DNA of 64,000 bases from positions 1,604,447 to 1,668,446 of the forward strand of contig OZ253496.1 in NCBI GenBank assembly GCA_965262115.1, read 5' to 3'. The DNA is from Nitrospinales bacterium (GTDB lineage Bacteria > Nitrospinota > Nitrospinia > Nitrospinales > VA-1). Below, one piece after another: positions 70 through 50,205 of this stretch. The translations under genes were made by a program, and so were the position numbers. Below the pieces are notes generated by a model. That model saw nothing but the letters and a program-made list of their open reading frames with translations, ran no database searches and was not told the DNA's origin. The first letter of the stretch is position 1, and each line of letters opens with the position of its first letter.

Positions 70-1008
70 ATGAAAATAGCGCTCACCGGTATCACCGGAA
101 TGGTGGGTTCCCATCTTATTAAAAAACTTGTTGAAGATAACCCGGAAGGTTCCTCCTATAACATCAGGGCTCTTATCCGCGAAGGTAGTGTAGTAGAACA
201 TTTAAAAACCTTTGAGGATGTGGATTATATTATCGGAGGTTTAGAGGATCGGGAATCCCTTGCAAAGCTCGTGCAGGATGTGGATGTGTTGCTGCATCTG
301 GCCCATTTCCCTGGTCCGGTTCAAGCTTATGATGAATTGGTCAAGGTCAATGTCCACGGTTCCTTTGATTTGTTGGAAGAAGCCAAAAAGGCAAAAGTCA
401 AGCAGGTGATCTTCATGAGTTCGTGCACGGTGTTTGGACAAATTCTCCCCACGGTTGATAAGGAACACCCACTCGATGAAAACCACCCGGTTTGGCCCAG
501 TAGTCTCTATGGCTCCATCAAATCCTCGATCGAAGGGTTTTGCCACTATTACTACAAAAGCCGGGCGTTTGACTTAACCATCCTGCGGCCGGTCACTGTG
601 TATGGAGTGCGGCCCCAGCTTGACAAGTCCGAATGGTTTCAAACTATTGATTTCCTCGCCACAAATTACAACGTGGACGTTAAGGGCAGTACCAAATATG
701 TTTCGGTGGCTTCAGTGGTGCAGGCTATACAGAAGGTCATGGGAAACGCGGAGGCATCCGGCAAAACCTACCATCTGATCGATGGGCATATTCATAACAT
801 GGATCTTGGAAACCTGATTGTGGATACCATCGATTCATTCGGCGAAGTTGAAGGCGTCATGGGGGAAGATGGCGTGCCGATGTCCAATCAGGCGGCAAAA
901 GACCTTGGGGTTGAGTTTCCCGGTCAAGAGCGCATTGTTGAATATATCAAACTCATCCATAAGCTTCATGGCGAATATGGTGGCGAACGAAACATTCAAA
1001 ACTGGTAG
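70..1008 (+). CDS. NAD-dependent epimerase/dehydratase (extended SDR)
   Basis: N-terminal TGxTGxxG (TGITGMVGS) and YxxxK (YGSIK) motifs; 312 aa. Confidence 0.85.
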   Translation: MKIALTGITGMVGSHLIKKLVEDNPEGSSYNIRALIREGSVVEHLKTFEDVDYIIGGLEDRESLAKLVQDVDVLLHLAHFPGPVQAYDELVKVNVHGSFDLLEEAKKAKVKQVIFMSSCTVFGQILPTVDKEHPLDENHPVWPSSLYGSIKSSIEGFCHYYYKSRAFDLTILRPVTVYGVRPQLDKSEWFQTIDFLATNYNVDVKGSTKYVSVASVVQAIQKVMGNAEASGKTYHLIDGHIHNMDLGNLIVDTIDSFGEVEGVMGEDGVPMSNQAAKDLGVEFPGQERIVEYIKLIHKLHGEYGGERNIQNW

Positions 1009-1019
1009 AGGAACCAAAC

Positions 1020-1526
1020 GTGTCGTCGCTCACATCCCAGGCATTCATCGACCGGTTGATCCATGAAAATTTTAGATTCTTTACCGGGGTTCCCTGCTCG
1101 TTGTTATCAGGCCTGATTTCATACCTGGAAGAAGTTGAAGAAGCTAAATACATTCCATCAGTGCGAGAAGATGCTGCGGTTGGTCTGTGCGCGGGTGCTT
1201 ATCTTTCCGGCTCCCTGCCCGTCCTGCTGATGCAAAACTCGGGACTGGGTTATTGCCTCAACGCCTTCACCTCGCTCAACCTGATTTACCGTATTCCTGT
1301 TTTGGTTATTATGAGCTGGCGCGGTCAGGGAGGAAAAGATGCCCCCGAACACATCATCATGGGAGACATCAATCAGAAGCTTCTCGAAACCGCTGGCATG
1401 GACTACGCGGTGTTAAAGCCGGACAACTGCGATCAGGTTCTCGCAACCGCCATGCGAAAAATCAATGTGGAAAAACTTCCTTATACGCTTCTTGTTAAGA
1501 AAGGGTTGTTTGATGAAAGGCACTGA
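1020..1526 (+). CDS. ThDP-dependent decarboxylase alpha subunit (phosphonopyruvate/sulfopyruvate decarboxylase type)
   Basis: GVPCS, REDAAVGLCAGAYL, LMQNSGLG and SWRG..KDAPEH motifs. Confidence 0.85.
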   Translation: MSSLTSQAFIDRLIHENFRFFTGVPCSLLSGLISYLEEVEEAKYIPSVREDAAVGLCAGAYLSGSLPVLLMQNSGLGYCLNAFTSLNLIYRIPVLVIMSWRGQGGKDAPEHIIMGDINQKLLETAGMDYAVLKPDNCDQVLATAMRKINVEKLPYTLLVKKGLFDERH

Positions 1527-2079
1527 GGCATTTCAGGAGTTACTGCCCTTGTTGGGAGACGAACCCGTGATACACGCCAATGGATATATTTGTCGGGAGT
1601 CGTTTTCCTTAAAAGACCGGGAAGCCAATTTTTATATGATCGGTTCCATGGGGCTCGCCTCTTCTATTGGACTGGGTGTGGCTTTATGCAAGACGGAGCA
1701 GAAGGTGATCGTGTTGGATGGAGATGGCAACGTGTTGATGGCTATGGGTACGCTTGCCATGATTGCGGCAGAAGCCCCGAAAAACCTGGTGCACGTTGTG
1801 ATCGACAATGAAGTGTATGAGTCAACAGGAAGGCAGCGCTCTATTTCTAATGCGGTGGCTCTTGAGAAAGTTGCCAAAAGCTCCGGTTACCGGCAAGCCA
1901 TGCGAGTCGAGAAAAGAGAGGAAATCAAACCGGCGTTTGAAAAGTTGATGAATTCCGAAGGGCCGGGTTTTCTGTTGATCAAGGTGGATCCATGTTTCGA
2001 TCCGAAAACAGGACGCGTGACACACACACCGGAAGAAATTACCACACGTTTCATGCGGTCAGTGACCGGGGACCACTAG
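1513..2079 (+). CDS. ThDP-dependent decarboxylase beta subunit
   Basis: NFYMIGSMGLASSIGLG and ThDP-binding GDG...DN motif; ATG at 1513 overlaps the end of the alpha gene. Confidence 0.85.
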   Translation: MKGTEAFQELLPLLGDEPVIHANGYICRESFSLKDREANFYMIGSMGLASSIGLGVALCKTEQKVIVLDGDGNVLMAMGTLAMIAAEAPKNLVHVVIDNEVYESTGRQRSISNAVALEKVAKSSGYRQAMRVEKREEIKPAFEKLMNSEGPGFLLIKVDPCFDPKTGRVTHTPEEITTRFMRSVTGDH

Positions 2080-2111
2080 CACGGGATTTTCTTCCTTAAC
2101 CTTCGTGAGCC

Positions 2112-2192
2112 TGTGATATCCCCTCCGCTAAATTCATGCCCGGAACGGGTATGTGATGTCCTCTTCCTTAAACTTCATGCCCGGAACGGGTA
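2112..2192 (+). repeat. Two tandem ~40-bp modules (2112-2151, 2152-2192)
   Basis: TGTGATATCCCCTCCGCTAAATTCATGCCCGGAACGGGTA then TGTGATGTCCTCTTCCTTAAACTTCATGCCCGGAACGGGTA. Confidence 0.9.
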
Positions 2193-2217
2193 GAAGGGGT
2201 AATAAATTGATAGGCAT

Positions 2218-2508
2218 TCAAAGAGTTGTCTCGGCTTGATGGGTTCTTGCCAACTCCCTCCCACGGGAGTGGGCTAGGCTAGGATCGACTTCAGCGCCCG
2301 ACGATGATTCCGGTGCTGTCGTATTGCCCGCTTCGCCACTCAGTTCAGCAGCTTGGTTGACGGGAGGAATAGGACTGGTCTGAGCTTCCTCTGTGGTCGT
2401 GCCTTGAGACTCCGCCGATGCTGCCGGACGAGCGTCTTTATTTCCTTCGCTTGTTTCTGTGGTCTGTTTTTGAGCGGCAGAAAAATTTCCCAGGCTTGAA
2501 ACTTTCAT
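2218..2508 (-). CDS. Low-complexity hypothetical protein, possibly truncated
   Basis: Follows the flaG-like gene on the same strand; S/T/E/A-rich; ends next to the repeat block. Confidence 0.45.
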   Translation of the reverse strand: MKVSSLGNFSAAQKQTTETSEGNKDARPAASAESQGTTTEEAQTSPIPPVNQAAELSGEAGNTTAPESSSGAEVDPSLAHSRGRELARTHQAETTL

Positions 2509-2557
2509 AACGCATCTCCCCTTTATTAGAAAATCTGTTTAGCTTTTCGGCGCAAAC

Positions 2558-2887
2558 CTATTCCGTGATATCGCTAACACTGTCCCGAATAGCGTTTTTC
2601 AATTGTAGTTCTGCTTCAGAGGGAACGGACTTAACCACCTTTTGGGTCTTCGGGTCGATGACCTGGAGAACCACATCATTGTTCTCCGTGACCGAAAATT
2701 TTCTTTGTCCGCTGCTTGCCTCTGCTAAAACCTTGGCTTGAGCAGACAGGTCAACAGAGTCTCCTGCTGATTTTAGTGCAGGAGCTGCAACTGACTTAGA
2801 CCCCGTGTCCCCCGAAGAGGGCTGCGGTTTGGATGTAGGAGCTTTCGGATTTCCAGCTGCGTTAACGGCCTGGCTATCCATGTGCAT
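2558..2887 (-). CDS. FlaG-family protein
   Basis: C-terminal FSVTENNDVVLQVIDPKTQKVVKSVPSE resembles the FlaG domain. Confidence 0.65.
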   Translation of the reverse strand: MHMDSQAVNAAGNPKAPTSKPQPSSGDTGSKSVAAPALKSAGDSVDLSAQAKVLAEASSGQRKFSVTENNDVVLQVIDPKTQKVVKSVPSEAELQLKNAIRDSVSDITE

Positions 2888-3205
2888 TTCCTCTACTCTT
2901 TATTAATAAGAGCACTCTTTAAACTATTGAAAAAAGGATATATTTCCTTATCCCCTTGCGTGGTGCATTTTTTGCCCAGTACACGCATTCTTCTTAACGG
3001 TAACTTGAGGATTAACTTTAGAAAAACATTAAAGAAATACAGTGAAATCGTGCCCTATTTTTGGATAAGGTCTTTGCGGGCTCGATAAGGCTTGAATTGA
3101 ACCTCTTTAGCAGTTATGATACCGGCTTGAAAAATAATTGAAAACAAAGTGGTTCGGGGAGTTTTATCTGAATTTATAGGGTCTTGTAACGCCGTTTATT
3201 GTGGA

Positions 3206-4954
3206 ATGAAAGAATTTTGTAAAATCCTGAAATATGCCAGGCCGTATGCCAAAAGCCTCATTTTCGCGTTTCTTTGCCTGGCTTTGACCTCGTTGATCAA
3301 CCTGGTATTGCCTTTGATTGTCCGCAATATGATCAACGCTTTGATCGTATTAAAAAACAGCGAGGTGCTGGATGGCCTGGCATGGGATTTAATCATCATC
3401 ATTGGTCTGCAGGCTGCGTTTGCGGTCACGCATAATTATATTTTTGGTTTCGTGGGTCACAGGATGACCACGGATTTTCGCATCGAATTTTTTGCCCATA
3501 TTCAATCCCTTTCATTGCGCTTTTTTCAGGAACGCCGGGTGGGAGAAATTTTATCCCGCATGAGTAACGATATATCTGTGATCGAGAATGCCCTGGTGAC
3601 TATTCCTGTTGCCCTGCTACGCCAGAGCATCACCTTGCTCGGGGCCATGACGATCATTCTGTATCTGAATTGGAAATTGACCGGACTCATTTTACTTATA
3701 CTGCCTCCCCTGATGATTTTTGCGCGGGTGTTTGGGCGACGGTTAAAAATGTTTTCGGAAAAACTGCAGGATCAAGTGGCGCAGGCGGTGGTGGTTCTTG
3801 AGGAAGTGATATCGTCTATTAAAATTGTCAAGTCCTTCACCCGCGAGCCTTATGAGCGCAACCGTTTTCAGGGCAAAATTGAAACGGCCTTTGAAAGAGC
3901 GGTGGACAAACTCAAAGTGTCTGCTTTTTTTGGTCCGTCCATACTCGGGCTCACTTTTTTGGTTTCCGCATTATTGATCTGGTATGGCGGATATCAGGTG
4001 ATGCAAGGGACGACGACCCCTGGCGAACTGGCGGCTTTTTTCCTGTACGCCCTGATCATTGCGGGACCGATCGGAACGTTTGTCCGGTTGTATACGCAGA
4101 TTCAGGAAGCCTCGGGTTCCATCTGCAGGGTCTACGAGATTCTCGATACCCAGCCGATGATTCAAAATCCGGAGAACCCGGTCGCGGTTGGGAATTTAAT
4201 GGGACGCATTCAATTCGAAAATGTTTCTTTCGGTTATCGGGACACTGCGGAGGTGATTCATGATGTCAGCTTTGATGTGCTCCCGGGGCAGACCGTTGCT
4301 CTGGTTGGTCCCAGTGGGGCCGGCAAGTCCACCCTCATCAAACTGTTGTTCCGCTTCTTCGATCCGTATTCCGGGGCCATTCGTCTGGACGAACACGATA
4401 TCCGCACTCTGGACCGGCGAAGTTTTCTCAGCCAGATTGCTCTGGTTCCCCAGGAAACGCTATTGTTCGGGGGAACAGTGAAGGAAAATATTCTTTATGG
4501 CAAGCTCGATGCGACTGAGGCAGAACTTAAAGAAGCCGCGCAAAAAGCCAACGCGCATGAATTCATCATGAATATGGAAAAAGGTTACGATACGGTTGTT
4601 GGTGAGAAGGGAACAAAACTTTCCGGGGGAGAAAGGCAGAGGATCGCCATTGCCAGGGCCATCTTAAAAGACCCGAAAATTCTGGTTCTGGATGAAGCGA
4701 CTTCTTCTTTGGATAACCGGTCCGAATCCCTCATTCAGGATGCTTTGGAAACTTTAATGGCCCACCGCACGACTTTTGTCGTCGCGCATCGCCTGAGCAC
4801 CATCCATAAAGCGGATCAGATTATGGTTCTGGATAAGGGAAGCATTGTTGAAGCGGGTCAACACGAGGACTTGATGAATAAAAAGGGCCTGTACCACAAC
4901 CTGTATACTTTGAAAATGCTCGAGCCTACCGCGCATGAAGGAGTGGATTTATAA
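3206..4954 (+). CDS. ABC exporter, fused TMD-NBD (MsbA-like)
   Basis: Hydrophobic N-terminal half; Walker A GPSGAGKST, LSGGERQR signature, ILVLDEATSSLD. Confidence 0.92.
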   Translation: MKEFCKILKYARPYAKSLIFAFLCLALTSLINLVLPLIVRNMINALIVLKNSEVLDGLAWDLIIIIGLQAAFAVTHNYIFGFVGHRMTTDFRIEFFAHIQSLSLRFFQERRVGEILSRMSNDISVIENALVTIPVALLRQSITLLGAMTIILYLNWKLTGLILLILPPLMIFARVFGRRLKMFSEKLQDQVAQAVVVLEEVISSIKIVKSFTREPYERNRFQGKIETAFERAVDKLKVSAFFGPSILGLTFLVSALLIWYGGYQVMQGTTTPGELAAFFLYALIIAGPIGTFVRLYTQIQEASGSICRVYEILDTQPMIQNPENPVAVGNLMGRIQFENVSFGYRDTAEVIHDVSFDVLPGQTVALVGPSGAGKSTLIKLLFRFFDPYSGAIRLDEHDIRTLDRRSFLSQIALVPQETLLFGGTVKENILYGKLDATEAELKEAAQKANAHEFIMNMEKGYDTVVGEKGTKLSGGERQRIAIARAILKDPKILVLDEATSSLDNRSESLIQDALETLMAHRTTFVVAHRLSTIHKADQIMVLDKGSIVEAGQHEDLMNKKGLYHNLYTLKMLEPTAHEGVDL

Positions 4955-5002
4955 TTCCGTTTGCAAAAATAGGATCGAGTTTTGAATTAATGGCGGAGGG
5001 GG

Positions 5003-5416
5003 TTATTCTCCCGGGTCGGCGCCAATTAAAAATCCGATCAAGTGAGCTTTTTTCTCTGTGTCACCACGATAATAAGTGCGCACCAATCTCTGAATCAGCT
5101 CATTTAACGTCGGGTCTTCTCCGTAAGTTTCTATAGCCTCGTTGACACAGGGCTCTTCACCGCCGGGAGCGTGTTGCGTTTTCTTGATAGGCCCCTTCCC
5201 CGTTAGCAGCCAGATTATATTGAGATCCGTGTGTTGATAAAGTTTTGCGATCGTGTCTGCCGAAGGTAAAGACTTGTTATTCTCGATATCTGATAAAGAA
5301 CCTTGGGAGATTTTGATCAATCTTGCCAACTCGAAAGATTTCAGTGGCAAAGATTTTCTCCACTGGCGGAGTCGGGACCCTAGAAATTTAGCTGTTCCTG
5401 ATTTTTTTTCTTGCAT
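5003..5416 (-). CDS. XRE-family HTH transcriptional regulator
   Basis: ELARLIKISQGSLSDIENNKSLP helix-turn-helix and NIIWLLTGKG; start taken at MQEKK. Confidence 0.8.
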   Translation of the reverse strand: MQEKKSGTAKFLGSRLRQWRKSLPLKSFELARLIKISQGSLSDIENNKSLPSADTIAKLYQHTDLNIIWLLTGKGPIKKTQHAPGGEEPCVNEAIETYGEDPTLNELIQRLVRTYYRGDTEKKAHLIGFLIGADPGE

Positions 5417-5790
5417 TATACGGCATACCAAATTATGATTGACAATGTCTAATTGCGGCCTTGAAAAATTTAAGGTCCTCCGAAGCCTACAGTTAAGTTC
5501 CTGGCGAATACCATTTATGTGCCAATTATGTGCCAAAAACGCGATATTATTCTAGTCCTATAGGAAAACTCAAGAACCTGATTCCCCCATTCTTCAGCGT
5601 ATAACCAGGTTCGAGCGGGAAAGCGTAAGATCAAAATATTGGAAGGATATCCAACCCTGCAATCGTTTGTACTTCTATAATTCCCCAAAATATTGCAACC
5701 GTCAATCTTTTTTCTGGTTTTTGGCGTTTTAAAATTTTTACATGGATGTAAAGGAAAATATGGCGAGGCGGAAGGTGTTTATGGATGTAT

Positions 5791-6069
5791 CTAAAAGTCC
5801 AGAGGTAAGGAGGAATTTTTGGGTAGAAGGATTTGGAAAAAACCTGCTTCTTCCTGAAAGAAATAATTTTCTACATTTAAAAGCACAATAAAAGGAAAAA
5901 TTTCTGGAAACGGATTCCCCCAGACTTCATGCGCGTTGCTGACCATTCCTTCGTCCCAAATATTCAATCCATATTTGGAGAAAGACCAGAAATAGGCCGC
6001 CAAGGCCAGATAGAGTAGAGAGACCCGGCCCCATCGTTTGACAGCGGTCTGTTCAGAAGGATTATTCAT
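5791..6069 (-). pseudogene. N-terminal remnant of a membrane protein (GT-C-like LNIWDEG motif)
   Basis: One TM segment plus WDEG, then the sequence loses protein-like character; directly downstream of nagZ. Confidence 0.35.
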
Positions 6070-6071
6070 TT

Positions 6072-7151
6072 TTATTCTTTGAAAAACGCCCGCATCTCCC
6101 GGGCGAGACTCTGGTTTTCCGCAAGAATATTTTCAAAATTCAGATCGTCGTTTTTCGGGGCTTTCAGTTTTTCTTTCACCTTGAAAATTCGAGCCAGAGA
6201 TTGCTCGATATTGGCGCGGGGAATTCTTCCGCTTTCAATGCCGTGAATCATCGAATCCTGAAGGGTGGTTACTTTTTTCAGATCGTGGCAAATGAGAAAC
6301 ACATCGATGCCGGCCTGGGTTCCCAGTTCAGGGATGGACTCCAGTTTATCTTCGATGGCCTGCATCTCCAGATCGTCTGACATAATCAGGCCTTCAAAGT
6401 GCAGAGAGTTCCTCAGCACATCATTCATAATAGAGTGGGAAAACGTAGCGGGGCGCTCGGCATCCCAGGCCGGGTAGACCACATGCGCCGTCATGATAAC
6501 TTCCAGTCCCTGCTTGATGGCATGGGCGAAGGGGATCAATTCGGTTTGTTCCAATGACTCCCGTGTTTGCTCAACTCTAGGCAGAGTGAGATGCGAATCC
6601 TGCGAGGTGTCCCCATGTCCGGGAAAATGTTTGCCCACAGGAATGACCCCGGCGTCATAAAATCCGCGAATCACTTCGGCCCCCAAACGCGCCACCTTTC
6701 CCGGGTCGCTGTCCAGAGCCCTGTGCCCAATTATAGGATTATCGGGGTTGGAGTGGACATCAAGAACCGGTGCGTAATCCATATTAACCCCGACCGCGCG
6801 CATTTCTCTCCCCATTGCCAGTCCGAACCGGTAAGCGAGGTCCTCCGAGTTGGCCTGCCCCAGGCACGACATGGGGGGGAATTGGGTGAAAGGTTCACCG
6901 AGCCGGGCCACCCTGCCGCCTTCCTGGTCCACCGAAATGAAAAGCGGGGGGATTTCTGCATTATTAGCGGCCAGTGACTGCAGGTCGGTTATCAATCGCC
7001 GTAGCTGGTCGGGATTTTTATAATTGCGCTCGAACAAAGTCAAACCGCCAATGCCCTGCTCAACAATCAGTTCTTCGGTGCGGGCGTTGAGGGAGGTCCC
7101 CTCAAATCCTGATACAATCATTTGGCCGGTCTGTTGTTTCAGCGAAAGCAA
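6072..7151 (-). CDS. nagZ: Beta-N-acetylhexosaminidase (GH3)
   Basis: SVDQEGGRVARL, KHFPGHG and IMSDDLEM motifs. Confidence 0.93.
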   Translation of the reverse strand: MLSLKQQTGQMIVSGFEGTSLNARTEELIVEQGIGGLTLFERNYKNPDQLRRLITDLQSLAANNAEIPPLFISVDQEGGRVARLGEPFTQFPPMSCLGQANSEDLAYRFGLAMGREMRAVGVNMDYAPVLDVHSNPDNPIIGHRALDSDPGKVARLGAEVIRGFYDAGVIPVGKHFPGHGDTSQDSHLTLPRVEQTRESLEQTELIPFAHAIKQGLEVIMTAHVVYPAWDAERPATFSHSIMNDVLRNSLHFEGLIMSDDLEMQAIEDKLESIPELGTQAGIDVFLICHDLKKVTTLQDSMIHGIESGRIPRANIEQSLARIFKVKEKLKAPKNDDLNFENILAENQSLAREMRAFFKE

Positions 7152-13528: not shown

Positions 13529-13611
13529 TACCCCTCTTCGGGGCATGAAGTACCCGTGCCGGGCATGAAGGTTAAGGGAGAGGACATCACAACTGATGAG
13601 GGGTCATAACA
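13529..13611 (-). repeat. Nested modules: 41-bp module (13551-13591) inside a 42-bp module
   Basis: Removing 13551-13591 rebuilds TACCCCTCTTCGGGGCATGAAGACTGATGAGGGGTCATAACA. Confidence 0.85.
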
Positions 13612-24379: not shown

Positions 24380-24474
24380 TCTTGTCATTCTGAAGAGCGT
24401 ACGCGATGAAGACGTGATATTTCACCAAAACTTTCGTGCCCTGAAAGGGTAATCTAGGGTTACGCAAAGGTCTC
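24380..24474 (+). repeat. Composite repeat: GTCATTCTGA arm, 39-bp module (24413-24451) and TTACGCAAAGGTCTC end
   Basis: Near-identical block at 54452-54542. Confidence 0.8.
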
Positions 24475-24585
24475 CCTGCCAAGGGGCTTGCCAATCCTGA
24501 TTTGTGGGTTTAAATTAATCCAAGCAGATGGTATGGATCGCCCTGCTCTTTTTAATGTTCCTTCAACCTTCCGAGGATTCCGGCC

Positions 24586-26065
24586 ATGGCAATCAAAACC
24601 TATAAAAACTTTATAGATGGGAAATGGGTAGCTTCTTCCAGCGGTGAAACCTTCGACAATATCAACCCCGCCAACCACAAAGAAATTCTCGGACGTTTCC
24701 AGAAATCCAATACGAATGATCTGAATAAAGCAGTGAAGTCCGCCGTCAAAGCCCAGGAAGGGTGGAGAAATCTGCCGGCCCCTAAACGTGGCGAAATTCT
24801 TTTCCGGGTGGGTGAACTGCTGACCAAACATAAAGAATCCCTGGCCAGGGACATGACCCGTGAAATGGGGAAGGTTCTCAACGAAACCCGTGGCGATGTT
24901 CAGGAGGCGATAGACCTGACCTATTACACAGCCGGGGAGGGCAGGCGACTGCTGGGAGAAACGGTTCCCTCTGAATTGAATAACAAGTTTTGCATGACCG
25001 TTCGAATGCCGGTAGGAGTGGCGGCGGCGATCACGCCCTGGAATTTTCCCATCGCCATTCCATCCTGGAAACTGATTCCTGCCCTGGTTTGCGGTAATAC
25101 CGTTGTGTTCAAACCTGCCAGCGACACTCCCCTTTCAGCCTATCGTTTTGTAAAACTCTTTGAAGAGGCGGACTTGCCACCAGGAGTCTTGAACTTTGTC
25201 ACCGGTTCAGGAGCAGAAATCGGCGAACCCCTCACAGAGCATCACAGCATCGATCTGGTTTCTTTCACCGGTTCGACCGACACCGGAGCGATGGTGGCAC
25301 ATAAATGTGCCTGGAGCATGAAACAATATTCTCTGGAAATGGGCGGTAAAAACGCCATCATCGTGATGGACGATGCCGATCTCGATCTCGCTGTGGAGGG
25401 CGTGGTATGGGGAGCGTTTGGAACGACGGTGCACCGCCTGCAGCCGTGTCATAGTGCATAAAAAAGTCCTTAAAAAATTTACCAGCCGCCTCCTCAAACG
25501 CACAAAAACGCTTCGCTTGGGAGATGGGCTCAAAAATACGACCGATGTTGGACCGTTGATCAACGAAGCACAACGGCAGAAGGTTTTGAGTTACTGCAAG
25601 ATCGGTGTGGAAGAAGGAGCCAGGCGGCTCATAGGTGGCAATGTTTATAAGAAGGGTAAGTGCCGGGACGGATTCTTCTTTGAGCCGACCTTGTTTGCGG
25701 GGGTGTCTCCGAAAATGCGCATAGCGCAGGAAGAAATATTTGGCCCGGTGTTGAGCATACTGGAATGCAAGAGTCTGGAGAATGCGGTGGAAATCGTCAA
25801 CGATTCCAGGTTTGGATTGTCATCGGCGATTTATACCCGGGATGTGAACCGAGCCTTCAAGGCCATTGAAAAACTCGACACTGGCCTCACCTATATCAAC
25901 TCTTCCACCATAGGGGCGGAAGTGCAACTCCCGTTCGGCGGTACCAAGGGAACGGGCAATGGTCACCGCGAAGCCGGGACCACCGCGCTGGAAATTTTTA
26001 CCGAATGGAAATCGGTGTTTGTCGATTACAGCGGCACTCTGCAAAAAGCTCAAATAGAAGATTGA
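24586..26065 (+). pseudogene. Aldehyde dehydrogenase, frameshifted just before the catalytic Cys (about 25430)
   Basis: ITPWNFP, FTGST, LEMGGKN in frame 1; CTACSR, EEIFGPV, PFGG in frame 2; the expected GQR before the Cys is missing. Confidence 0.88.
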
Positions 26066-27099: not shown

Positions 27100-27262
27100 T
27101 CGCATCCCTCCCTTCATAGGGAGGGACTGAGGGAGGGTTGGATTATGATTCCGTAATAAAAATCCACACCCCTCCGCGGCTACGCCTTGCCTCCCCTCAT
27201 GAGAGGGGAGGATCAATGAGGGTCTCGGGTTGTGCAAAGGTCTCCTCATGAGAGGGGAGGAT
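27100..27262. repeat. Cluster of CCCCTC...GAGGGG palindromic repeats plus a TIR-like end (27230-27244)
   Basis: CCCTCCCTTCATAGGGAGGG also occurs near 8610; the CCACACCCCTCCGCGGCTACGCCTTG arm also occurs near 47850 and 53015. Confidence 0.7.
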
Positions 27263-29350: not shown

Positions 29351-29802
29351 CCTCGGAGGGGAGAGGAACTTAATAGTTGAGGAGTACATCCACCTACGGA
29401 AAAATATAACATGATCTTCCCCTGAATTGGTGGACACATCGAAAAGTGTGGATAATACACTTTTGGAGGTGTTTTTATGGGAACCAAACGCAGGAGTTTC
29501 AGTAAAGAATTCAAGTTAGAAGCGGTTCGATTGGTTATTGAAGTAGGCGATAGCATTGCCCGGGTGTCCCGGGATCTGGGAATCCGTTCTGCCCTTCTGG
29601 GTCGCTGGAAACAGGAGTATGAGGAGGATCAGGGGAATGCGTTTCCCGGCAAAGGACAGCTTAAGCCGGGAGATGAGTTGCAGCAGTTGCGGCGAGAAAA
29701 CGCTCGCCTTCGTATGGAGCGGGACATATTAAAAAAGGCGGCAGTTATCTTTGTGATGTCCTCTTCATTTGTCTTCATGCCCCGAAGCAACTGTGTTAAA
29801 TG

Positions 29803-30960
<1,158 letters not shown>

Positions 30961-32112
30961 ATGAACAACATACAAGGGGTACTCGAAGGGTTCCCAATGA
31001 GATATCGGTTTATACGGGATCATCGAGAAGCATTTCCGGTAAGCCCGATGTGCCGGGTTCTGGAAGTGGGACGAAGTGGGTTCTATGCCTGGCTGAGCCG
31101 CCCCGAGAGCCTGAGGAGCCGTGAGAAGCAGCGATGGGTTGATGAGATCAAAACCGTTTATAAGAAGAGTCGCCAGACTTATGGCAGTCCCAGAATTCAT
31201 GAGGACTTGAAAGACAAGGGATATGCCATTGGCAGGCATCGTATTGCCTGTCTTATGCGCGAGCATGGAATCGTTGCCAAGCACAAAAGAAAGTTCAGGG
31301 TGACAACCGATTCCAAACATAATCACCCGGTGGCAAAAAACAAACTGCAACGGCGGTTTAATGTTGCTGAGCCCGGTCAATGCTGGGTTTCGGATATCAC
31401 CTATATCCCGACTCAAGAGGGCTGGTTATACCTTGCGGTGACGCTGGATTTATTCCACCGTAAAGTTATTGGTTGGGCCATGGATCGTTGGATAACCCGT
31501 TGGTTGGTAATGAGAGCTTTAAATATGGCAATGAAGAACGGCGGCATGAAACCGGGATTGATTCACCATTCTGACCGGGGGGTTCAATATGCCTGCAACG
31601 ATTTTCAAGCCTTGCTCAATGTTCATGGGATAGAGTGCAGTATGAGCCGGAAGGGCGATTGCTGGGATAACGCCGTGGCGGAGAGTTTTTTCCATACTCT
31701 CAAAGTGGAACTCATTCATAACCGGAACTACAAAACCCGTCAGCAAGCAAAGAAGGATATTTTTGAATATATCGAAGTGTTTTATAATCGGCAACGCCGT
31801 CACTAATATCTCGGCTATCTCAGCCCTGCCGAATTCGAGAAACAGGCCTATGCCTCTTAACTAACTGTCCACTAAAACAGGGGAAGATCAGTGCCCCAGT
31901 CGATGAATGACAGCCTGGCTAAATACCCTGAAAGGGGAATGTATTTTTCCCTCAAGTAAAACGTGCTGGTTTCGGCGCATGTCTTCGCCAAAAACAGCAA
32001 GCTCATCAGCCATCAACTCTACAAAAAGCGCTAGGCGCGCGGCCAACTTGCAATAGCTAAGACTGCTGGCAATAATACTCTTGGCTTGCCCGGTTGCTTC
32101 TCGAGGCCATTT

Positions 32113-32191
32113 TGTCATTCTGAGGAACAACGTGACGAAGAATCTCGCCTTGCGCTAACCTGGAGATTCTTCGCTATCGCTCAGAATGACA
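32113..32191. repeat. Palindromic REP-like repeat, empty of module
   Basis: TGTCATTCTGA...CGAAGAATCT / AGATTCTTCG...TCAGAATGACA. Confidence 0.85.
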
Positions 32192-33975: not shown

Positions 33976-34009
33976 AGGTGTGGTTTAAAGGTGAAAGGGT
34001 AATCTCGGG

Positions 34010-34363
34010 TTACACAAAGGTCTCCTTGATAACAGGAACATCACCCCATAGACGTTCGAGGTCGTAGTGAAGGCGGACTTTTTTATGGAAAACATGCACT
34101 ATTAAATCTCCAAGATCGACCACCACCCATGTGCCTCCCGAATAACCTTCTACAGCAAAGGGTTTATTGCGGGTCTGGTAATACTTGTCGAGGATGGCAT
34201 CAACAATAGATTGAACGTGAACCTTGGAGTTTCCACTGCAGATCATGAAAGCATCTGTCAGGTCCGAGCGGTTCCGCAAGTCCAGGATGAGAACGTCAAA
34301 AGCCTTTTTTTCCGCGGCAGAATCAACGGCCAGCTGTTGAAGAGCGCTTAATTTTTCTCTCAT
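34010..34363 (-). CDS. rsfS: Ribosome silencing factor
   Basis: KKAFDVLILDL, ICSGNS..HV, WVVVDLGDLIVHVF, YDLERLW. Confidence 0.93.
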   Translation of the reverse strand: MREKLSALQQLAVDSAAEKKAFDVLILDLRNRSDLTDAFMICSGNSKVHVQSIVDAILDKYYQTRNKPFAVEGYSGGTWVVVDLGDLIVHVFHKKVRLHYDLERLWGDVPVIKETFV

Positions 34364-38559: not shown

Positions 38560-39141
38560 GTCACAACGCCCGGAACTGGCGGCGGATGGCAAGGAGCATC
38601 AGGGCGATGATCGTGGGACCGATCAGGTGTTGCAGGGCAACGATAAACTTTGGCCCAACGAGGATGCCCCCTTGATTTGAAAGTCACGGTCCCAGCGTTG
38701 CAGGGTTAACGCCTGCAAGGTGAGCACAGCGGAACCCGTCCCCCTGAAGACGGTATTGCGGTACCACTTCTCCGTTTGCGCGGCTTGTTGACGTGCTACG
38801 GTTTTCGGCTCGATCCAGACCCAGTTAATAGAGGCGAACACCAGCCATACCGCTATAAAACTTACTAGCGCCTGTTGCCATTTTTCTCCGTAGCCTGAGA
38901 CGATTTTGTAAAGTTGTGTCAGTGTCAGGTATTTAAAAAGTGGCAAATAGTTGGATATAGGTTTTTCCTCCCACGCCAGCATTTGAGCTTTACGGTGTTT
39001 TTTCGAAGCGACGGCCTTTGAAATTGACATCGCCGATCTCTTCTCCGTAAAGCGATTCCCTCTAGCGAGTTTGTTAAGCGCTTCTTTCTGGGTCAGGGGT
39101 TCGGGCATGGTTGTGGGTTGTTTTAATTCCCCTCCTGACAA
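38560..39141 (-). pseudogene. C-terminal membrane-domain fragment (ion-channel-like tail), frameshifted
   Basis: LYKIVSGYGEKWQQAL...; continues in another frame as IGPTIIALMLLAIRRQFR; no N terminus. Confidence 0.5.
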
Positions 39142-39194
39142 GGAGGGGTTAGGGGAGGTTTATCAAATAAACCCCCTCAATCCCCCTTATCAGG

Positions 39195-39419
39195 GGGAAG
39201 TTTGCATAACCCCGGATTACCCCCCTCCGGGGCAAGAATTCAAAGGTCAAATATCACTAGCTCAGCATGACAATAAAGGGCTGTTTTGTCATTCTGAGGA
39301 ACAACGTGACGAAGACGTGATATTCGTGATGGCCTCTTCCTTAAACTTCATGCCCGGCACGGATATTTCCTTAAACTTTGTGCCCCGCAGGGGTAATCTC
39401 GGGGTTATGCAAAGGTCTC
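39195..39419. mobile_element. Composite MITE with three modules (39218-39258; 39316-39395 containing nested 39325-39365)
   Basis: TTTGCATAACCCC...GGGGTTATGCAAAGGTCTC inverted ends around REP-like arms. Confidence 0.8.
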
Positions 39420-39485
39420 TTAAGGCGGGGGGGGGGCTGGAATTATCTATTTGAAAATAAAGGAGCAATTCGATACAATCCGGGC

Positions 39486-41147
39486 ATGGGTATCGAAAAA
39501 GATTTCATTGTAATTGGTTCTGGTGTGGCGGGGCTGACCTTTGCGCTCAAGGTCTGCAAGTTCGGTTCGGTGGGAATCGTTACCAAGGACGCTTTGGAGG
39601 AGTCGGCGACCAAATATGCCCAGGGCGGTATCGCCTCGGTGATGGCCGGGGACGATTCGTTCGAGTTGCATGTTCAGGACACGGTGGAAACCGGGCGCGG
39701 ACTCTGCCACGAAGACTTCGTGCGCATCGCCTGCCGCGAGGGTCCGGCACGAGTGCGTGAGTTGATCGACCTCGGCGCCCAGTTCGACCGCGTGGGCGGT
39801 GCCGAGTTTGATCTGGGAAAAGAAGGCGGACACTCCAAACGTCGCATTCTGCATGCGAATGACCTGACGGGCTGGGAGATTGAACGCACCCTCATCAAAG
39901 CGGTTCACGCTCATGACAATATAGAAATATTTGAACACCATATGGCTATCGACCTCATCACCCGGGCTAGGCTCGAGGAGAAAATTCAGCCGGGTAGCGA
40001 CCAGGACGAGGTGTTGGGACTTTATGTCCTGAACCACCCGACGCAAAAGGTCGAGACGATGGTGGGCCGGGTCATTCTCATGGCCACCGGCGGCGCGGGC
40101 AAGGTTTATCTTTATACATCGAATCCGGACACGGCTACCGGTGATGGTGTTGCGGTGGCTTATCGGGCCGGAGCGCAAATCGCCAATATGGAATTTTTCC
40201 AGTTCCATCCGACCTGCCTGTTTCACCCGAAAGCGAAATCGTTTCTCATTTCGGAGACGGTGCGGGGCGAGGGCGGAATCCTGCGTTTGCAAAACGGCGA
40301 CACGTTCATGGAGAATTACCATTCTTTGGGTTGCCTGGCTCCCCGTGATGTGGTGGCGCGGGCCATCGACTACGAAATGAAAATGAACGGCGACGACTAC
40401 GTCCTTCTCGATGCGACGCATCTTGAGGGTTATCGCATTCGTGAGCGCTTCCCAAATATTTATAAAACCTGTCTGGAATTCGGATTTGATATGTCGCAGG
40501 AGCCTGTTCCCGTTGTGCCGGCGGCGCATTATATGTGTGGTGGACTGGTGGTGGATGTCAACGGTCAGACCAATATTAAAAGGCTTTTTGCCAGCGGGGA
40601 GGTGTGTTTCTCCGGTTTGCATGGCGCCAATCGGCTGGCCTCCAACTCCCTGCTGGAAGGACTGGTGCTCTCGCACCGTGCAGTGGAAAAAGCGGTGAAG
40701 TTGTTTAAGGAAACCAAAAATTCTAAAAGCCCGTTGGAGCGGATTCCTGAATGGGACCCCGGAAGCGCGGTGGACAGTGACGAGTCGGTCGTTGTATCAC
40801 ACAACTGGGACGAAATCCGCCGGTTGATGTGGAACTATGTTGGCATTGTTCGTTCCGACAAGCGTCTAAAACGGGCTGAGCGCCGCATTCAACTTCTGCT
40901 GGAGGAGATTCAGGAATATTACTGGAAATTTAAAATTACCAAGGACACCCTGGAACTGAGAAACATCGCTATCACGGCGCGGTTGATCATTCAGGGGGCG
41001 ATGACCCGAAAAGAAAGCCGGGGTTTGCACTATAACCTCGACTACCCGGAACCCGATGACGCGAACTGGAAACAGGACACGGTTTTCCAGAGTACGGTTC
41101 ATCGATTGATAACCAAAACCAACCCGAGAATTGTGACCCATGAGTGA
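39486..41147 (+). CDS. nadB: L-aspartate oxidase
   Basis: VIGSGVAG, YAQGGIA, EGGHS..RILH, QFHPT, PAAHYMCGG, GLHGANRLASNSLLE. Confidence 0.95.
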   Translation: MGIEKDFIVIGSGVAGLTFALKVCKFGSVGIVTKDALEESATKYAQGGIASVMAGDDSFELHVQDTVETGRGLCHEDFVRIACREGPARVRELIDLGAQFDRVGGAEFDLGKEGGHSKRRILHANDLTGWEIERTLIKAVHAHDNIEIFEHHMAIDLITRARLEEKIQPGSDQDEVLGLYVLNHPTQKVETMVGRVILMATGGAGKVYLYTSNPDTATGDGVAVAYRAGAQIANMEFFQFHPTCLFHPKAKSFLISETVRGEGGILRLQNGDTFMENYHSLGCLAPRDVVARAIDYEMKMNGDDYVLLDATHLEGYRIRERFPNIYKTCLEFGFDMSQEPVPVVPAAHYMCGGLVVDVNGQTNIKRLFASGEVCFSGLHGANRLASNSLLEGLVLSHRAVEKAVKLFKETKNSKSPLERIPEWDPGSAVDSDESVVVSHNWDEIRRLMWNYVGIVRSDKRLKRAERRIQLLLEEIQEYYWKFKITKDTLELRNIAITARLIIQGAMTRKESRGLHYNLDYPEPDDANWKQDTVFQSTVHRLITKTNPRIVTHE

Positions 41148-43470
41148 AGAAAAAACAGTACATATACTAATCCGAGATTTTTTTGGTGTGATTGCGCTCG
41201 CCTTCACTGTATTTAGCTTGATGGCGTTGACGACTTTTTCCCCCGATGACCCGTCTTTCAATAAAAGCATTACCGGGGTGAACGTGGCAAACTCTGCCGG
41301 CAGGGTCGGAGCTTATTTTTCCGATGGACTGGTCCGCGTCTTTGGCAGTGGTTCATTTTTCTTTCCGGTGATCACGGCGCTTTTAGGTTGGGCTTTGATT
41401 CGGGGAAAAGATTTTCACAACTGGGTGTTGATTTTAAGTTCGGGGGTTTTATTTTTGATCGGACTATGTTCTCTGCTCGCGATCCAGTTCGAGGTCGATC
41501 CGTTTTTTGGTTCAGCGGTTCCGGTCGGCGGTTTGGTCGGCCATGGCCTTGGTGGATTTCTGATGACATGGTTGAATGCTTCAGGAGCAGTGCTGACCTT
41601 GATCACTTTATTGTTCGTGGCCTTTCTGGTGATGACGCGCATTCCGGTCAACGCTCTGGTGGAGTGGATCGGAAAAATATTCCAAGCCCTGGCTGCAGTG
41701 TCAATATTGGGGGCGAATGCAATAAAAAATATGACTTTGAAAAGCTTGTTGGCCACCCGGACTTTGATGGAAAAATTTCAAACGGTGCGAGAGGGGATGC
41801 AAAAAATTAATAAAGCGGCGCCGGTGATCGTCACCCGTACCCGGCCTGAACCGGTGGTGAAGATTGTAGAGAAGACAAAGAAAACCAGGGAAGAAAAAGT
41901 CGAGTTTGTTGTTCAGGATCATTTTGCTTTCATGAGTTCATCTGGTAAATATCAGGTTCCTCCACTTTCCTTGTTGGAAGACCCTCCACCGGATAAAGAT
42001 GTTCGGGCGGATAAAACCCGCGACGAGATTCTTGCCAGCAGTGCCATTCTGGAAAAAAAGTTGTCCGACTTTGGCATTGAGGGGCGGGTGGTTCAGGTTC
42101 TGCCGGGTCCGGTCATCACTTTGTTTGAGTATGAGCCGGCGCCGGGGGTCAAGGTCAGCCGCATCGTATCTCTGGCGGACGACCTGTCGTTGGCTATGCG
42201 TTGTGTAGGGCTCCGCATTCTGGCTCCTGTACCGGGCAAGCCGGTGGTGGGCATTGAGATTCCCAACCTGCGGCGCGAGACCATTTATTTTAAAGATGTC
42301 ATGACATCAGATGTGTTTCAGGAGTCGGAATCCAACCTCACTCTGGCGATTGGCAAAGATGTTACCGGCGAACCGGCGGTGCAGGATCTGGCGACCACGC
42401 CGCATTTACTCATGGCGGGTTCGACCGGGTCGGGTAAAAGTGTCGGGCTCAACGCCATGATCTGCAGCATCCTTTTGAATGCCACGCCAGATGAAGTCAA
42501 AATGATCATGATTGATCCGAAGATGCTGGAGTTGTCTATCTATGATGGTATTCCGCATCTTATTTCCCCAGTGGTCACCAATCCTAAAAAAGCTGCCGCC
42601 GCACTGCAGTGGGCGGTCAACGAAATGGAATCGCGTTACAAAATGATGGCCGAGTGCGGAGTGCGCAATATCGGCGGCTTCAACGAGCTTGCGGAGAAAC
42701 TGCAAAAGGAATATGAACTGGAACTGAAAAAACGCGAAAAAGCCAATAAAGGGTTCAAGCCTACAAATGATGAGGGCGAGGAAGAAGAGGAGATAATGCC
42801 GGAACCGCCCACGAAACTCCCCTGCATTGTTGTGCTGATCGATGAGTTGGCTGACCTCATGATGGTTGCATCCAAAGGGGTGGAAGACTCGTTGACCCGG
42901 CTGGCGCAGATGGCACGGGCCGCCGGCATTCATCTGATCGTGGCCACGCAACGACCTTCAGTGGATGTCTTGACGGGAATCATCAAGGCTAATTTCCCCG
43001 CACGTATGTCTTATAAAGTCACCTCTCGGGTGGACTCCAGAACCATTCTGGATGCTATGGGTGCCGACAAACTTCTCGGTAAAGGCGATATGCTGTTTCT
43101 GCCTCCTGGGACTTCCAAACTTCACCGATTACATGGGGTAATGGTCAGCGATGCGGAAATTCAACGCATTGTGGACTTTATCAAGAAGCAGGCGAAACCG
43201 CATTATCAGGAAGATATTTTCGAGTCGGTGGTTCAGGAAGAGAAGGGCGGAGGAGAAGAGGAAGAACCGTTTGACGAAAAATATGATGAAGCTCTCGCCA
43301 TTGTTGCGAAAGACCGGCAGGCTTCCATTTCTTACATACAGCGGCGATTAAGAATAGGCTATAATCGGGCAGCTCGAATCATTGAAACCATGGAGAGAGA
43401 AGGGGTGGTGGGCCCATCTGATGGAGTTAAACCCCGCGAAGTCTATGTCAGCCCGATCAAAATTGAATAG
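41140..43470 (+). CDS. ftsK: DNA translocase FtsK
   Basis: N-terminal TMs, PHLLMAGSTGSGKS, IDELADLM, QRRLRIGYNRAARI gamma domain. Confidence 0.95.
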   Translation: MSEEKTVHILIRDFFGVIALAFTVFSLMALTTFSPDDPSFNKSITGVNVANSAGRVGAYFSDGLVRVFGSGSFFFPVITALLGWALIRGKDFHNWVLILSSGVLFLIGLCSLLAIQFEVDPFFGSAVPVGGLVGHGLGGFLMTWLNASGAVLTLITLLFVAFLVMTRIPVNALVEWIGKIFQALAAVSILGANAIKNMTLKSLLATRTLMEKFQTVREGMQKINKAAPVIVTRTRPEPVVKIVEKTKKTREEKVEFVVQDHFAFMSSSGKYQVPPLSLLEDPPPDKDVRADKTRDEILASSAILEKKLSDFGIEGRVVQVLPGPVITLFEYEPAPGVKVSRIVSLADDLSLAMRCVGLRILAPVPGKPVVGIEIPNLRRETIYFKDVMTSDVFQESESNLTLAIGKDVTGEPAVQDLATTPHLLMAGSTGSGKSVGLNAMICSILLNATPDEVKMIMIDPKMLELSIYDGIPHLISPVVTNPKKAAAALQWAVNEMESRYKMMAECGVRNIGGFNELAEKLQKEYELELKKREKANKGFKPTNDEGEEEEEIMPEPPTKLPCIVVLIDELADLMMVASKGVEDSLTRLAQMARAAGIHLIVATQRPSVDVLTGIIKANFPARMSYKVTSRVDSRTILDAMGADKLLGKGDMLFLPPGTSKLHRLHGVMVSDAEIQRIVDFIKKQAKPHYQEDIFESVVQEEKGGGEEEEPFDEKYDEALAIVAKDRQASISYIQRRLRIGYNRAARIIETMEREGVVGPSDGVKPREVYVSPIKIE

Positions 43471-43486
43471 GGTTTTCGGAAAGAAT

Positions 43487-44356: not shown

Positions 44357-44366
44357 TTGGTGAGCC

Positions 44367-45140: not shown

Positions 45141-45178
45141 AAATTTTTATTGGCATTTCAGGATGCCGGGGATCTTTT

Positions 45179-45919: not shown

Positions 45920-45944
45920 CCGCCGGGCAACGCCCGGTGGTAAG

Positions 45945-46124: not shown

Positions 46125-46217
46125 AATAGCATATTGCGCCGAGATGCCGATTGAAGGTAAGATTAAGCCATTGCCATTTACCCGTGGAGGAACTCCACTT
46201 TTTGTAAAGGATTCAAC

Positions 46218-46724: not shown

Positions 46725-46729
46725 GACGG

Positions 46730-50151: not shown

Positions 50152-50205
50152 TGACGGGATCATACCGGTTGGCATGGATCGGCTCAAGCGTTAAAGCGTA
50201 AAGCC

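Follow-up and report, generated by a model that had tools for sequence, protein, structure and literature searches.

The window analyzed here is a 64-kb stretch of the genome of a Nitrospinales bacterium (contig OZ253496.1), in which Pfam searches of 30 open reading frames (ORFs) returned ordinary housekeeping genes together with insertion sequence elements of the IS3 and IS110 families. Near its beginning, 33 nt past the stop codon of a thiamine-pyrophosphate-enzyme gene (1465–2079), lie two short repeat units in direct tandem, each of which ends in a small hairpin with a GNA triloop (where N is any base). The span 2137–2192 consists of the hairpin of a 40-nt module (2112–2151) and the complete 41-nt module that follows it (2152–2192). 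This module, its spread through related genomes and the way in which it might move are the subject of the present analysis.

The hairpin module and its conservation

A profile built from the copies detected 12 full units and about 10 further ones with a variant arm or a partial match in the window. Nine of the full copies are intergenic and three lie within the orfA/orfB overlap of an IS3 element. The consensus of the 41-nt module, 5'-TGTGATRTCCTCTTCMTTAAACTTCAT-GCCCn-GNA-n'GGGTA-3', comprises a 27-nt pyrimidine-rich arm starting with TGTGAT and a hairpin of 14–15 nt, which forms the 3' end of the unit. The stem is built from the pairs T-A, G.T, C-G, C-G, C-G and a closing pair n-n' that encloses the loop G-N-A. 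Every variant and coordinate listed by the sequence-only reading, an earlier inspection of the letters that gave the starts of modules or of hairpins, is present in the window.

The hairpin is strongly over-represented. Allowing at most one mismatch, GCCCNNNNNGGGTA had 31 matches in the window, compared with 11.6 +/- 3.3 in shuffled sequences, none of 100 shuffles reaching 31, and the exact pattern GCCC-N5-GGGTA occurred 17 times (about 0.5 expected). To look beyond the window, we gathered wider loci from a genome collection by a pattern of the arm only, leaving the hairpin out of the query. Nearly all matches came from Nitrospina, Nitrospinaceae or Nitrospinales assemblies, including the complete chromosome OZ252246.1, Nitrospina sp. 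LS_NOB, ANT-74 and CATMOP01; the few matches outside this lineage were chance matches at gene starts, without a hairpin. In 534 kb of Nitrospinaceae loci from at least ten other genomes, GCCC-N5-GGGTA was found 212 times (about 4 expected), and it was absent from 162 kb of unrelated loci. The hairpin observation is thereby confirmed as real and general, extending beyond the window.

Sequencing depth gave a similar picture. In genome runs of the organism itself, word depth at modules climbs from about 16 to 283–633 (run X1) and from about 297 to 6,077–10,548 (run X3), module k-mers stand at 18–40 times chromosomal depth, and contigs end at modules. The 31-mers of the module at 2152–2192 likewise reach 18–40 times the flanking depth in both runs. 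This rise in word depth implies tens of identical copies per genome.

The five central bases of the hairpin were left unconstrained in the search, and 221 of the 229 hairpins (17 in the window and 212 in the loci) nevertheless read n-G-N-A-n'. Of the loop bases, G and A are kept in about 97% of copies, positions 1 and 3 varying in about 3%, whereas position 2 differs from the commonest base in 43% (A 127, C 69, T 16, G 9), as in a GNA triloop. Among the 221 copies, the loop is closed by C-G in 155, by G-C in 35, by T-A in 22 and by A-T in none, with nine non-Watson-Crick combinations. Pairing at this point is constrained, 96% (212/221) being complementary although both bases are about as variable as the middle of the loop. 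A closing pair that changes compensatorily around a retained loop G and A, as proposed from the window, was thus recovered in the wider set. Eleven of the 221 hairpins fall within ORFs of at least 150 aa, ORF calling being crude.

Covariation was scored on 72 distinct modules, which were found by the 5' arm alone and aligned without gaps, with no selection for the hairpin. The closing pair was CG in 35 modules, GC in 18, UA in 14, a wobble in two (one GU and one UG) and unpaired in three. The covariation score of 0.242 compares with 0.095 in a shuffle control that takes no account of relatedness among copies (0 of 500 shuffles reached the score), and it fell to 0.083 or less when the 3' partner was slid; 92% of cells were paired versus 84% in shuffles. 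The observation made in the sequence-only reading, a covarying closing pair around loops that are not random with respect to GNA, is therefore confirmed, and the interpretation attached to it is supported in part.

The signal comes wholly from the closing pair, the other five stem pairs being essentially invariant. The second pair, G.T (G.U in the alignment), is kept in 66 of the 72 modules and is otherwise G-C (3) or unpaired (3); its retention, which had been claimed, holds, but it never covaries. The accompanying statement that structure rather than sequence is under selection proved too strong. Only a single pair covaries; the rest of the stem, including the G.T, hardly varies, nor do G and A of the loop, so that sequence is conserved as much as structure.

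Insertion sites and insertion sequence elements

Module content turns over fast between genomes that are about 95% identical. The window interval 41600–57500 was compared with four related loci (L054, L061, L078 and L032). Most genes shared with OZ252246.1 and LS_NOB are 93–97% identical, while the intergenic module content differs almost everywhere. For example, the inverted 41-nt unit at 46066–46106 is missing at the equivalent site of OZ252246.1 (L061), where an uninterrupted (+) module GTGATATTTTTCCTTAACTTTCGT-GCCCCGTAGGGGTA is found. The (+) unit of the pair at 47719–47775 is missing in LS_NOB (L054), and the module site at 13551–13591 is also occupied in LS_NOB (L017). Synteny with OZ252246.1 is broken at the IS3 copy at 53042–54331; L078 and L032 are about 20 kb apart in OZ252246.1.

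In-silico removal of single units (39325–39365 and 52895–52935 in the window, and 6645–6685 in L039) recreates composites known elsewhere, at 93–100% identity. Removing 39325–39365 gives a composite that is intact in L032, L080 and L089, and the composite at 50362–50429, which is paralogous to the region 52857–52935, lacks the second unit. Nested units stand after GTGATATT of another module (window 39325, L058, L039 and L077) and also before TTTCGT plus hairpin, the "ttcttccgtagc" class. No flank duplication was seen at the four resolved insertion sites.

The sequences on the 5' side of modules are heterogeneous. About 46% of units directly follow the end of another hairpin (GGGTA|) and about 15% an opposite-strand hairpin plus TG or CG; the remaining flanks end in ...GTAGC|, ...ATATT|, GCATG/GCACG, ATCTT and others. 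On the 3' side, GGGTA may be followed by A, T, C or G, and hairpins are followed by ATCTCG, TGTGAT or CTTCGT. The units form tandem arrays, nested units and long inverted composites, and clusters of opposed units can fold into long hairpins (−36 kcal/mol, z = −4.2, for 54335–54560); the modules at 54345–54423 (−) and 54481–54519 (+), for instance, build a long inverted repeat around a central palindrome. The module thus has exact ends, inserts in either orientation without target duplication, and has other copies as its preferred neighbors. Exact ends and duplication-free insertion fit enzymes that work on folded single strands.

The clearest insertion into unique sequence concerns the IS3 element. 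This element is 1290 bp long, has inverted ends TGATCTTCCCCTG...CAGGGGAAGATCA, and is present at about 16 copies per genome (depth 252–255 vs 16). In all three window copies the module lies between GCAGTTATCTT and CTCGAAGGG, 14 nt past the A AAA AAG slippery site. With the insert in place, orfB lies in the +1 frame instead of the canonical −1 frame, and the latter is closed by a TGA that shares bases with the ATG of orfB. The depth of about 13 of the 16 copies passes directly from orfA into the module, and a module-less joint was not seen in the organism's own genome runs. The 41 nt are missing from all 24 metagenomic relatives of the element (OrfB 51–86% identical), their junction reads ...GCAGTTATCTT|CTCGAA..., and the closest of them read ...AAAAAAGGCGGCAGTTATCTT|CTCGAAAGG.... 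An exact-pattern metagenome scan for such a junction gave no match because the relatives read GAAAGG, not GAAGGG; the empty sites were found by a protein-guided scan. Judging from these junctions, the IS3-borne unit is a duplication-free insertion into unique sequence, bounded by TGTGAT...GGGGTA.

The hairpin also serves as a landing site for an IS110-family element. In IS3 copy A the element interrupts the hairpin loop and is bordered by AA at each end (CCCCGAA|...|AAGGGG). In its 5' non-coding leader, a small stem GGGCTTTTAAGCCC is flanked by TACCCCTT and CCCGAAG, which match the two hairpin halves; the leader also contains ACAGTTGC / TGTTGT, which match the element's own ends. The location at a fixed loop position and the apparently guide-like leader segments would agree with a specific target site, and the leader layout is probably that of a bridge RNA programmed for the hairpin. 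Depth suggests that the hairpin junction is intact in about one third of IS3 copies (72.6 vs 202.8), and that many IS3 copies in the genome are interrupted by IS110 likewise.

Relation to known systems and possible mechanism of movement

A number of known systems provide a background for the module. Repetitive extragenic palindromes (REPs) are processed as folded single strands by REP-associated tyrosine transposases (RAYTs), whose genes usually lie between REPs of their own, and IS110 elements besides IS621 also target REPs. The TnpA transposases of IS608 and ISDra2 recognize imperfect hairpins and insert without duplication, and IS200/IS605 elements are strongly orientation-biased relative to replication. 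GNA triloops of the d(GCGAAGC) type are unusually stable DNA mini-hairpins, as described by Hirao, Yoshizawa and colleagues. REPs are extragenic palindromes of 20–40 nt, often arranged as dimers or mosaics, which show complementary stem changes and in most cases bear a tag, either GTAG or CGTC; those with GTAG are associated with RAYT genes, and no transposase is known for those with CGTC (PMC3733652, PMC2817692, PMC3479197). REPs have been described as landing sites for IS621 (PMC11208160).

As a short, imperfect, extragenic palindrome of high copy number, the module agrees with the definition of a REP. Like the REP, BIME and REPIN repeats (20–40 nt) associated with RAYTs in E. coli, Pseudomonas and Stenotrophomonas, it occurs in dozens to hundreds of copies; it has a G+C-rich stem and a loop of 2–3 nt, with complementary stem changes between subfamilies; its dimers, head-to-head or tail-to-tail, can give longer hairpins, and it joins other repeats in mosaic clusters; and it is lineage-restricted and targeted by IS110-family elements. 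On the other hand, it lacks GTAG or CGTC next to the stem, having CAT on the 5' side and the GGGTA end (GGGTAG in a minority of copies). Its 27-nt unpaired 5' arm, with the hairpin exactly at the 3' end, its common direct tandem arrays of the whole unit and its failure to avoid divergent intergenic regions are also unlike REPs, and no RAYT gene was found in the examined DNA (the window plus the 534 kb of loci). Considering that the lifestyle and hairpin logic are REP-like and that the tag is absent, the arm long and the arrays in tandem, the module works like a REP without being a member of the tagged families. Our best reading is that it represents a lineage-specific, REP-like family of mobile repeats, confined to Nitrospinaceae and carrying a GNA-triloop hairpin.

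Other systems are less similar. Elements of the IS200/IS605 group (IS608, ISDra2) and their miniature derivatives, the palindrome-associated transposable elements (PATEs), share with the module the lack of target duplication and of terminal inverted repeats, an imperfect hairpin near the end and one-strand polarity. However, IS200/IS605 elements carry hairpins at their two ends, integrate 3' of a fixed target of 4–5 nt and show a lagging-strand-template bias, whereas the module has one hairpin, heterogeneous 5' flanks and no replichore bias, and neither TnpA nor TnpB was seen with it. Integron attC sites are also recognized as folded single strands, with structure conserved above sequence and stem asymmetries that pick the strand; they measure 57–141 nt, delimit gene cassettes and depend on attI and on the integrase of an integron. 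None of this is found at the module, whose hairpin sequence, unlike that of attC, is strongly conserved. The module does resemble the GNA DNA mini-hairpin in its C-GNA-G arrangement, with G and A fixed, the middle base free and C-G the commonest closing pair, a likeness seen here at the level of the base sequence. REPs within genes (PMC3733652) and the mitochondrial "byp" elements are mobile GC-rich hairpin insertions inside coding regions. As in these, a short hairpin repeat lies in a reading frame (the IS3 orfA/orfB overlap), here within an element that was still multiplied. The module gives no sign of translational bypass; its insertion moves orfB from −1 to +1. In the literature searched, we found no description of Nitrospina repeats and nothing relevant on GNA triloops in transposition.

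How might such a unit move? We lean toward the view that the module is a REP-like mobile element that needs a paired GNA hairpin and is moved by a structure-specific single-strand enzyme, a strong possibility that still falls short of probable. The module would be excised and rejoined by a trans-acting, structure-specific single-strand DNA enzyme, the obvious candidate being a RAYT-like or IS200-like HUH/Y1 tyrosine transposase. Such an enzyme would recognize, on the TGTGAT strand, both the GNA mini-hairpin and the fixed bases of the stem, and would cleave at ^TGTGAT and GGGTA^. Hairpins unable to close would fail to propagate, and the active strand would be marked by the asymmetry of the loop and by the conserved G.T. 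It is plausible that the module is recognized as folded single-stranded DNA; the single-stranded substrate itself, the class of enzyme and the role of the G.T in strand choice are what we infer.

Several observations weigh against this mechanism. A Y1/HUH transposase (RAYT or IS200), a kind of protein that the sequence-only reading had mentioned as using imperfect hairpins to discriminate strands, was not found by motif, Pfam or multi-copy-gene searches of the window and the 534 kb of loci rich in modules, which cover about 14% of one complete chromosome. A six-frame scan of this DNA for an HUH plus YxxNP motif returned nothing. Ten ORFs have hairpins on both sides (in eight cases an inverted pair), and Pfam identified these as ordinary genes; the sole true multi-copy gene is the IS3 transposase, since the largest cluster of multi-copy "proteins" results from other repeats being read spuriously. 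Neither GTAG nor CGTC, the tags of most described REPs, is present, and only one base pair covaries. A single hairpin, heterogeneous targets and the lack of replichore bias speak against a mechanism of the IS200/IS605 type in particular. Indeed, the 5' flanks of insertions have no tetranucleotide in common, unlike IS200/IS605 targets. When the replichores of OZ252246.1 were split where GC skew changes sign, near 1.3 Mb, hairpins numbered 23(+):28(−) where the skew is positive and 48:51 elsewhere (Fisher p 0.73), and full modules 10:16 and 23:21 (Fisher p 0.33).

The two strands differ by construction in the loop and in the position of the G.T. Nearest-neighbor folding gives only −3 to −4 kcal/mol for either strand, with little difference between them, under ViennaRNA DNA parameters that include no bonus for GNA loops. 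Transitions that keep a wobble number 10 on the TGTGAT strand (C to T, 5' half) versus 6 on the other strand only (G to A, 3' half), a suggestive but not significant excess, and strand specificity was thus not supported. On this question, orientation relative to genes and replication is uninformative. Finally, the IS3 target and the usual 3' neighbor of modules (TCTCGAAGCAT) have the heptamer CTCGAAG in common, and the IS3 insertion might therefore have arisen by microhomology or template switching.

This last point belongs to a broader explanation, in which no dedicated enzyme is needed. Slippage, unequal recombination, gene conversion and microhomology-based template switching would spread the units, and the hairpin would promote these events or bind a host protein as a duplex or cruciform. 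Such an origin is a serious rival, although we consider it unlikely. The large share of modules that directly follow another hairpin end in tandem is in its favor, as are the shared 7-nt CTCGAAG, the frequent occurrence of the same hairpin type in adjacent units, and the joining of one rare arm to different hairpins (window 2112 vs L089 972). Moreover, the dominant loop is GTA in the window and GAA in OZ252246.1, and such a difference at about 95% genome identity suggests concerted evolution. However, exact 41-nt ends recur at unrelated sites without shared flanks (IS3, L058, the inverted unit at window 46066 and several solitary copies), slippage would hardly yield inverted nested insertions, and a symmetric duplex-binding dimer would fix one closing base instead of permitting three complementary pairs. 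A further alternative is that the module acts as RNA: it would be co-transcribed with adjacent genes, and its GNA-capped G.U hairpin would protect transcripts, direct their processing or form a small RNA, with pairing selected in the RNA and copies spreading by any available means. The exact 41-nt insertions would not be explained in this way. The G.U wobble and the GNA triloop would suit RNA equally well, modules often lie just past stop codons (such as that of the gene ending at 2079), and the module is sense-oriented within the IS3 element; many described REPs are thought to work as RNA (PMC3733652). Nevertheless, between co-directional genes the GNA strand is sense in 39 cases and antisense in 35, and divergent, promoter-holding regions are not avoided (29 hairpins vs 34 in convergent regions), both counts resting on crude ORF-based gene calls. 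The hairpin has no T-tail, hence it is no intrinsic terminator, and it has no Rfam match. The organism's only run labelled as RNA contained nothing from this region, and the other runs compared with it are genomic DNA. A role as RNA is in our opinion distinctly improbable.

The covariation itself might reflect inheritance alone, from three old founder hairpins (C-G, G-C and T-A) with no current selection on the closing pair or loop. All three types co-occur in the window, LS_NOB, OZ252246.1, ANT-74 and CATMOP; being shared by at least five genomes they must be old, and perhaps as few as two compensatory events are needed. The invariance of five of the six pairs and the lack of correction for relatedness in the shuffle control are compatible with this explanation. 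It was also found that an identical rare arm is joined to a g-c closing pair at window 2112 and to c-g at position 972 of L089, and whole-hairpin transfer between arms could keep pairing without selection on pairing. Within each type, however, the middle loop base has changed repeatedly (CG with A, C, G or T; GC with A, C or T; TA with A or C), and mismatched, one-sided versions of the closing pair are each seen once or twice only. The contrast between loop positions 1 and 3 and position 2 is likewise not what neutral decay would give. Repeated change of the middle base, rare one-sided variants and near-fixed outer loop bases together argue against pure inheritance, which we regard as very improbable. 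Copies in which the closing pair or the G...A is lost evidently give rise to no lineages, and we conclude that closure of the GNA triloop is required for propagation or retention.

In a more novel reading, the repeat might be of a new kind: a one-hairpin, 41-nt, tagless single-strand mobile repeat, able to sit in the IS3 frameshift window without halting IS3 multiplication. In place of a RAYT, it would be moved by an enzyme not yet described, or by a host function that has been recruited, with the GNA DNA mini-hairpin as the feature that is read. This reading appears distinctly improbable to us. Bacteria of the Nitrospina type are the main marine nitrite oxidizers, and the module reshapes intergenic regions between genomes that are about 5% apart, which bears on strain typing, assembly, and the evolution of promoters and untranslated regions. 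The family also amounts to a natural experiment on the requirements of hairpin-repeat propagation, namely a GNA triloop that is closed, by whichever of the three pairs, and a fixed outer stem. In addition, an IS110 element that probably has a bridge RNA finds a defined target in the hairpin. Identification of the moving enzyme would tell whether REP-like mobility exists beyond the GTAG/RAYT scheme.

Other repeats and features of the window

The copies of the module in the window and the elements associated with them are listed below.

Table 1. Hairpin modules, associated insertion sequences and neighboring repeats in the window
Feature	Position	Strand	Details
Hairpin sequence form, GNA strand			CATGCCCCGAAGGGGTAT
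Hairpin form distinct from GTA and GCA loop variants			CCCCGAAGGGG
Degenerate arm remnant	2085–2111	+	TCTTCCTTAACCTTCGTGAGCC; precedes module 2112–2151
Variant-arm module, 40 nt	2112–2151	+	Arm TGTGATATCCCCTCCGCTAAATTCAT; hairpin GCCCgGAAcGGGTA at 2138–2151, g-GAA-c
Canonical 41-nt module	2152–2192	+	TGTGATGTCCTCTTCCTTAAACTTCAT-GCCCgGAAcGGGTA; hairpin 2179–2192, g-GAA-c; tandem with 2112–2151
Same two units, written with hairpin GCCCGGAACGGGTA	2112–2192		TGTGATATCCCCTCCGCTAAATTCAT-GCCCGGAACGGGTA (40 nt), TGTGATGTCCTCTTCCTTAAACTTCAT-GCCCGGAACGGGTA (41 nt)
Arm-less second hairpin	13529–13545		CCCCGAAGAGGGG; follows module 13551–13591
41-nt module	13551–13591	−	g-GCA-c hairpin 13551–13564
Variant-arm module	24413–24451	+	GTGATATTTCACCAAAACTTTCGT; t-GAA-a hairpin 24438–24451
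IS3-family copy A	29412–31890		Carries module 29752–29786; interrupted by IS110
Module within IS3 copy A	29752–29786	+	Loop cut by IS110-family element; hairpin continues at 30974
IS110-family element	29787–30973		DEDD_Tnp_IS110 and Transposase_20 domains; transposase split into 264-aa and 66-aa ORFs
Variant-arm module	39218–39257	−	c-GGA-g hairpin with extra C
Host module of nested unit	39316–39324 + 39366–39395		c-GCA-g, hairpin 39382–39395
Nested 41-nt module	39325–39365	+	g-GCA-c, one stem mismatch
Variant-arm module	45993–46032	−	c-GGA-g hairpin 45993–46006
Interrupted module	46045–46065 + 46107–46123	+	Split between arm and CGT+hairpin by 46066–46106
41-nt module	46066–46106	−	g-GAA-c hairpin 46066–46079
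Two degenerate modules	47719–47775		Hairpin GCCCAGAAGGGGTA (−) 47719–47732; GTGTAATATTTCTTCATTTGCCTTCAT-ACCCCGAAAGAGTA (+)
Two tandem 41-nt modules	50220–50301	−	g-GAA-c 50220–50233, g-GCA-c 50261–50274
Variant-arm module	50369–50406	+	GTGATATTTGACCTTTGAATTCTT; c-GTA-g hairpin 50393–50406
Variant-arm module and canonical 41-nt module (52895–52935), tandem	52857–52935	+	c-GTA-g hairpins 52881–52894, 52922–52935
IS3-family copy B	53042–54331	−	Carries module 53951–53991
Module within IS3 copy B	53951–53991	−	One stem mutation (GCCACGAAGGGGTA)
Canonical module (54345–54385) and variant-arm module (54386–54423)	54345–54423	−	c-GTA-g hairpins 54345–54358, 54386–54399
Module	54481–54519	+	t-GAA-a hairpin 54506–54519
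IS3-family copy C	62863 to beyond 64000		Carries module 63204–63244
Module within IS3 copy C	63204–63244	+	c-GAA-g hairpin 63231–63244; between GCAGTTATCTT and CTCGAAGGG
Second interspersed module	24455–24486, 27225–27256, 34005–34036, 39400–39431, 47913–47944, 52964–52995, 54523–54554		
Third module	24382–24412, 32105–32141, 39253–39315, 50311–50367, 52799–52855, 54417–54479		

Several other classes of element were considered for the module and rejected. An intrinsic terminator is not supported, as there is no T-tail and none of the GNA hairpins in 39000–55000 was called terminator-like. No Rfam 15 family matched at gathering score in the window, or at E up to 1 in 50100–54700, and the search for tRNA or tmRNA found none. 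The units abut without spacers, which excludes a CRISPR array; the ends TGTGAT and GGGTA do not form inverted repeats and no target is duplicated, as opposed to a MITE (a miniature transposable element with inverted repeats). A miniature element derived from IS200/IS605 would agree in the lack of duplication but not in the single hairpin and the lack of a fixed target. The cyanobacterial HIP1 sequence was represented by a single GCGATCGC, i.e., at chance level.

Other repeats are interspersed with the module. In a second one, (AATCTCGGG)TTAYGCAAAGGTCTCC precedes a small, variable hairpin; most of its copies are found immediately 3' of the GNA hairpin. A third is an imperfect palindrome CTCAGCATGACAA...TTGTCATTCTGAGGA, then AACAACGTGACGAAGAC, and forms the center of the large inverted composites; its long arrays in related genomes are read as spurious ORFs (a 17-member "protein" cluster). 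A further repeat, CCACACCCCTCCGCGGCTACGCCTTGCCTCCCCTCATGAGAGGGGAGG, adjoins module clusters in both orientations (27165–27215, 47830–47885 and 53015–53045). On the opposite strand of canonical tandem units (e.g., 2152–2192), a frame of 14 codons reads ATG AAG TTT AAG GAA GAG GAC ATC ACA TAC CC. ... GCA TGA; its TGA overlaps the ATG of the next unit and it is preceded by the purine-rich AAGGAAGAGG. This frame is probably coincidental.

A perfect 28-nt tandem repeat of 3.3 copies, with the unit GTGGTTTTCATCGGCCCTGCGCCGAGCA and an internal TCGGC/GCCGA stem, was found at 61944–62035, together with a diverged unit from 61920; since it has no spacers, it is not a CRISPR array. Two genes in the window are split into overlapping ORFs. 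The aldehyde dehydrogenase gene at 24586–26065 consists of ORFs 24586–25461 (profile positions 1–264 of 461) and 25373–26065, which may reflect a frameshift or a pseudogene. The autotransporter-like gene at 50734–52685, which contains six internal repeats of 75 nt (25 aa) at 50910–51425, is divided into ORFs 50734–52140 and 52137–52685, whereas it is a single ORF in OZ252246.1 (L078 4467–6851).

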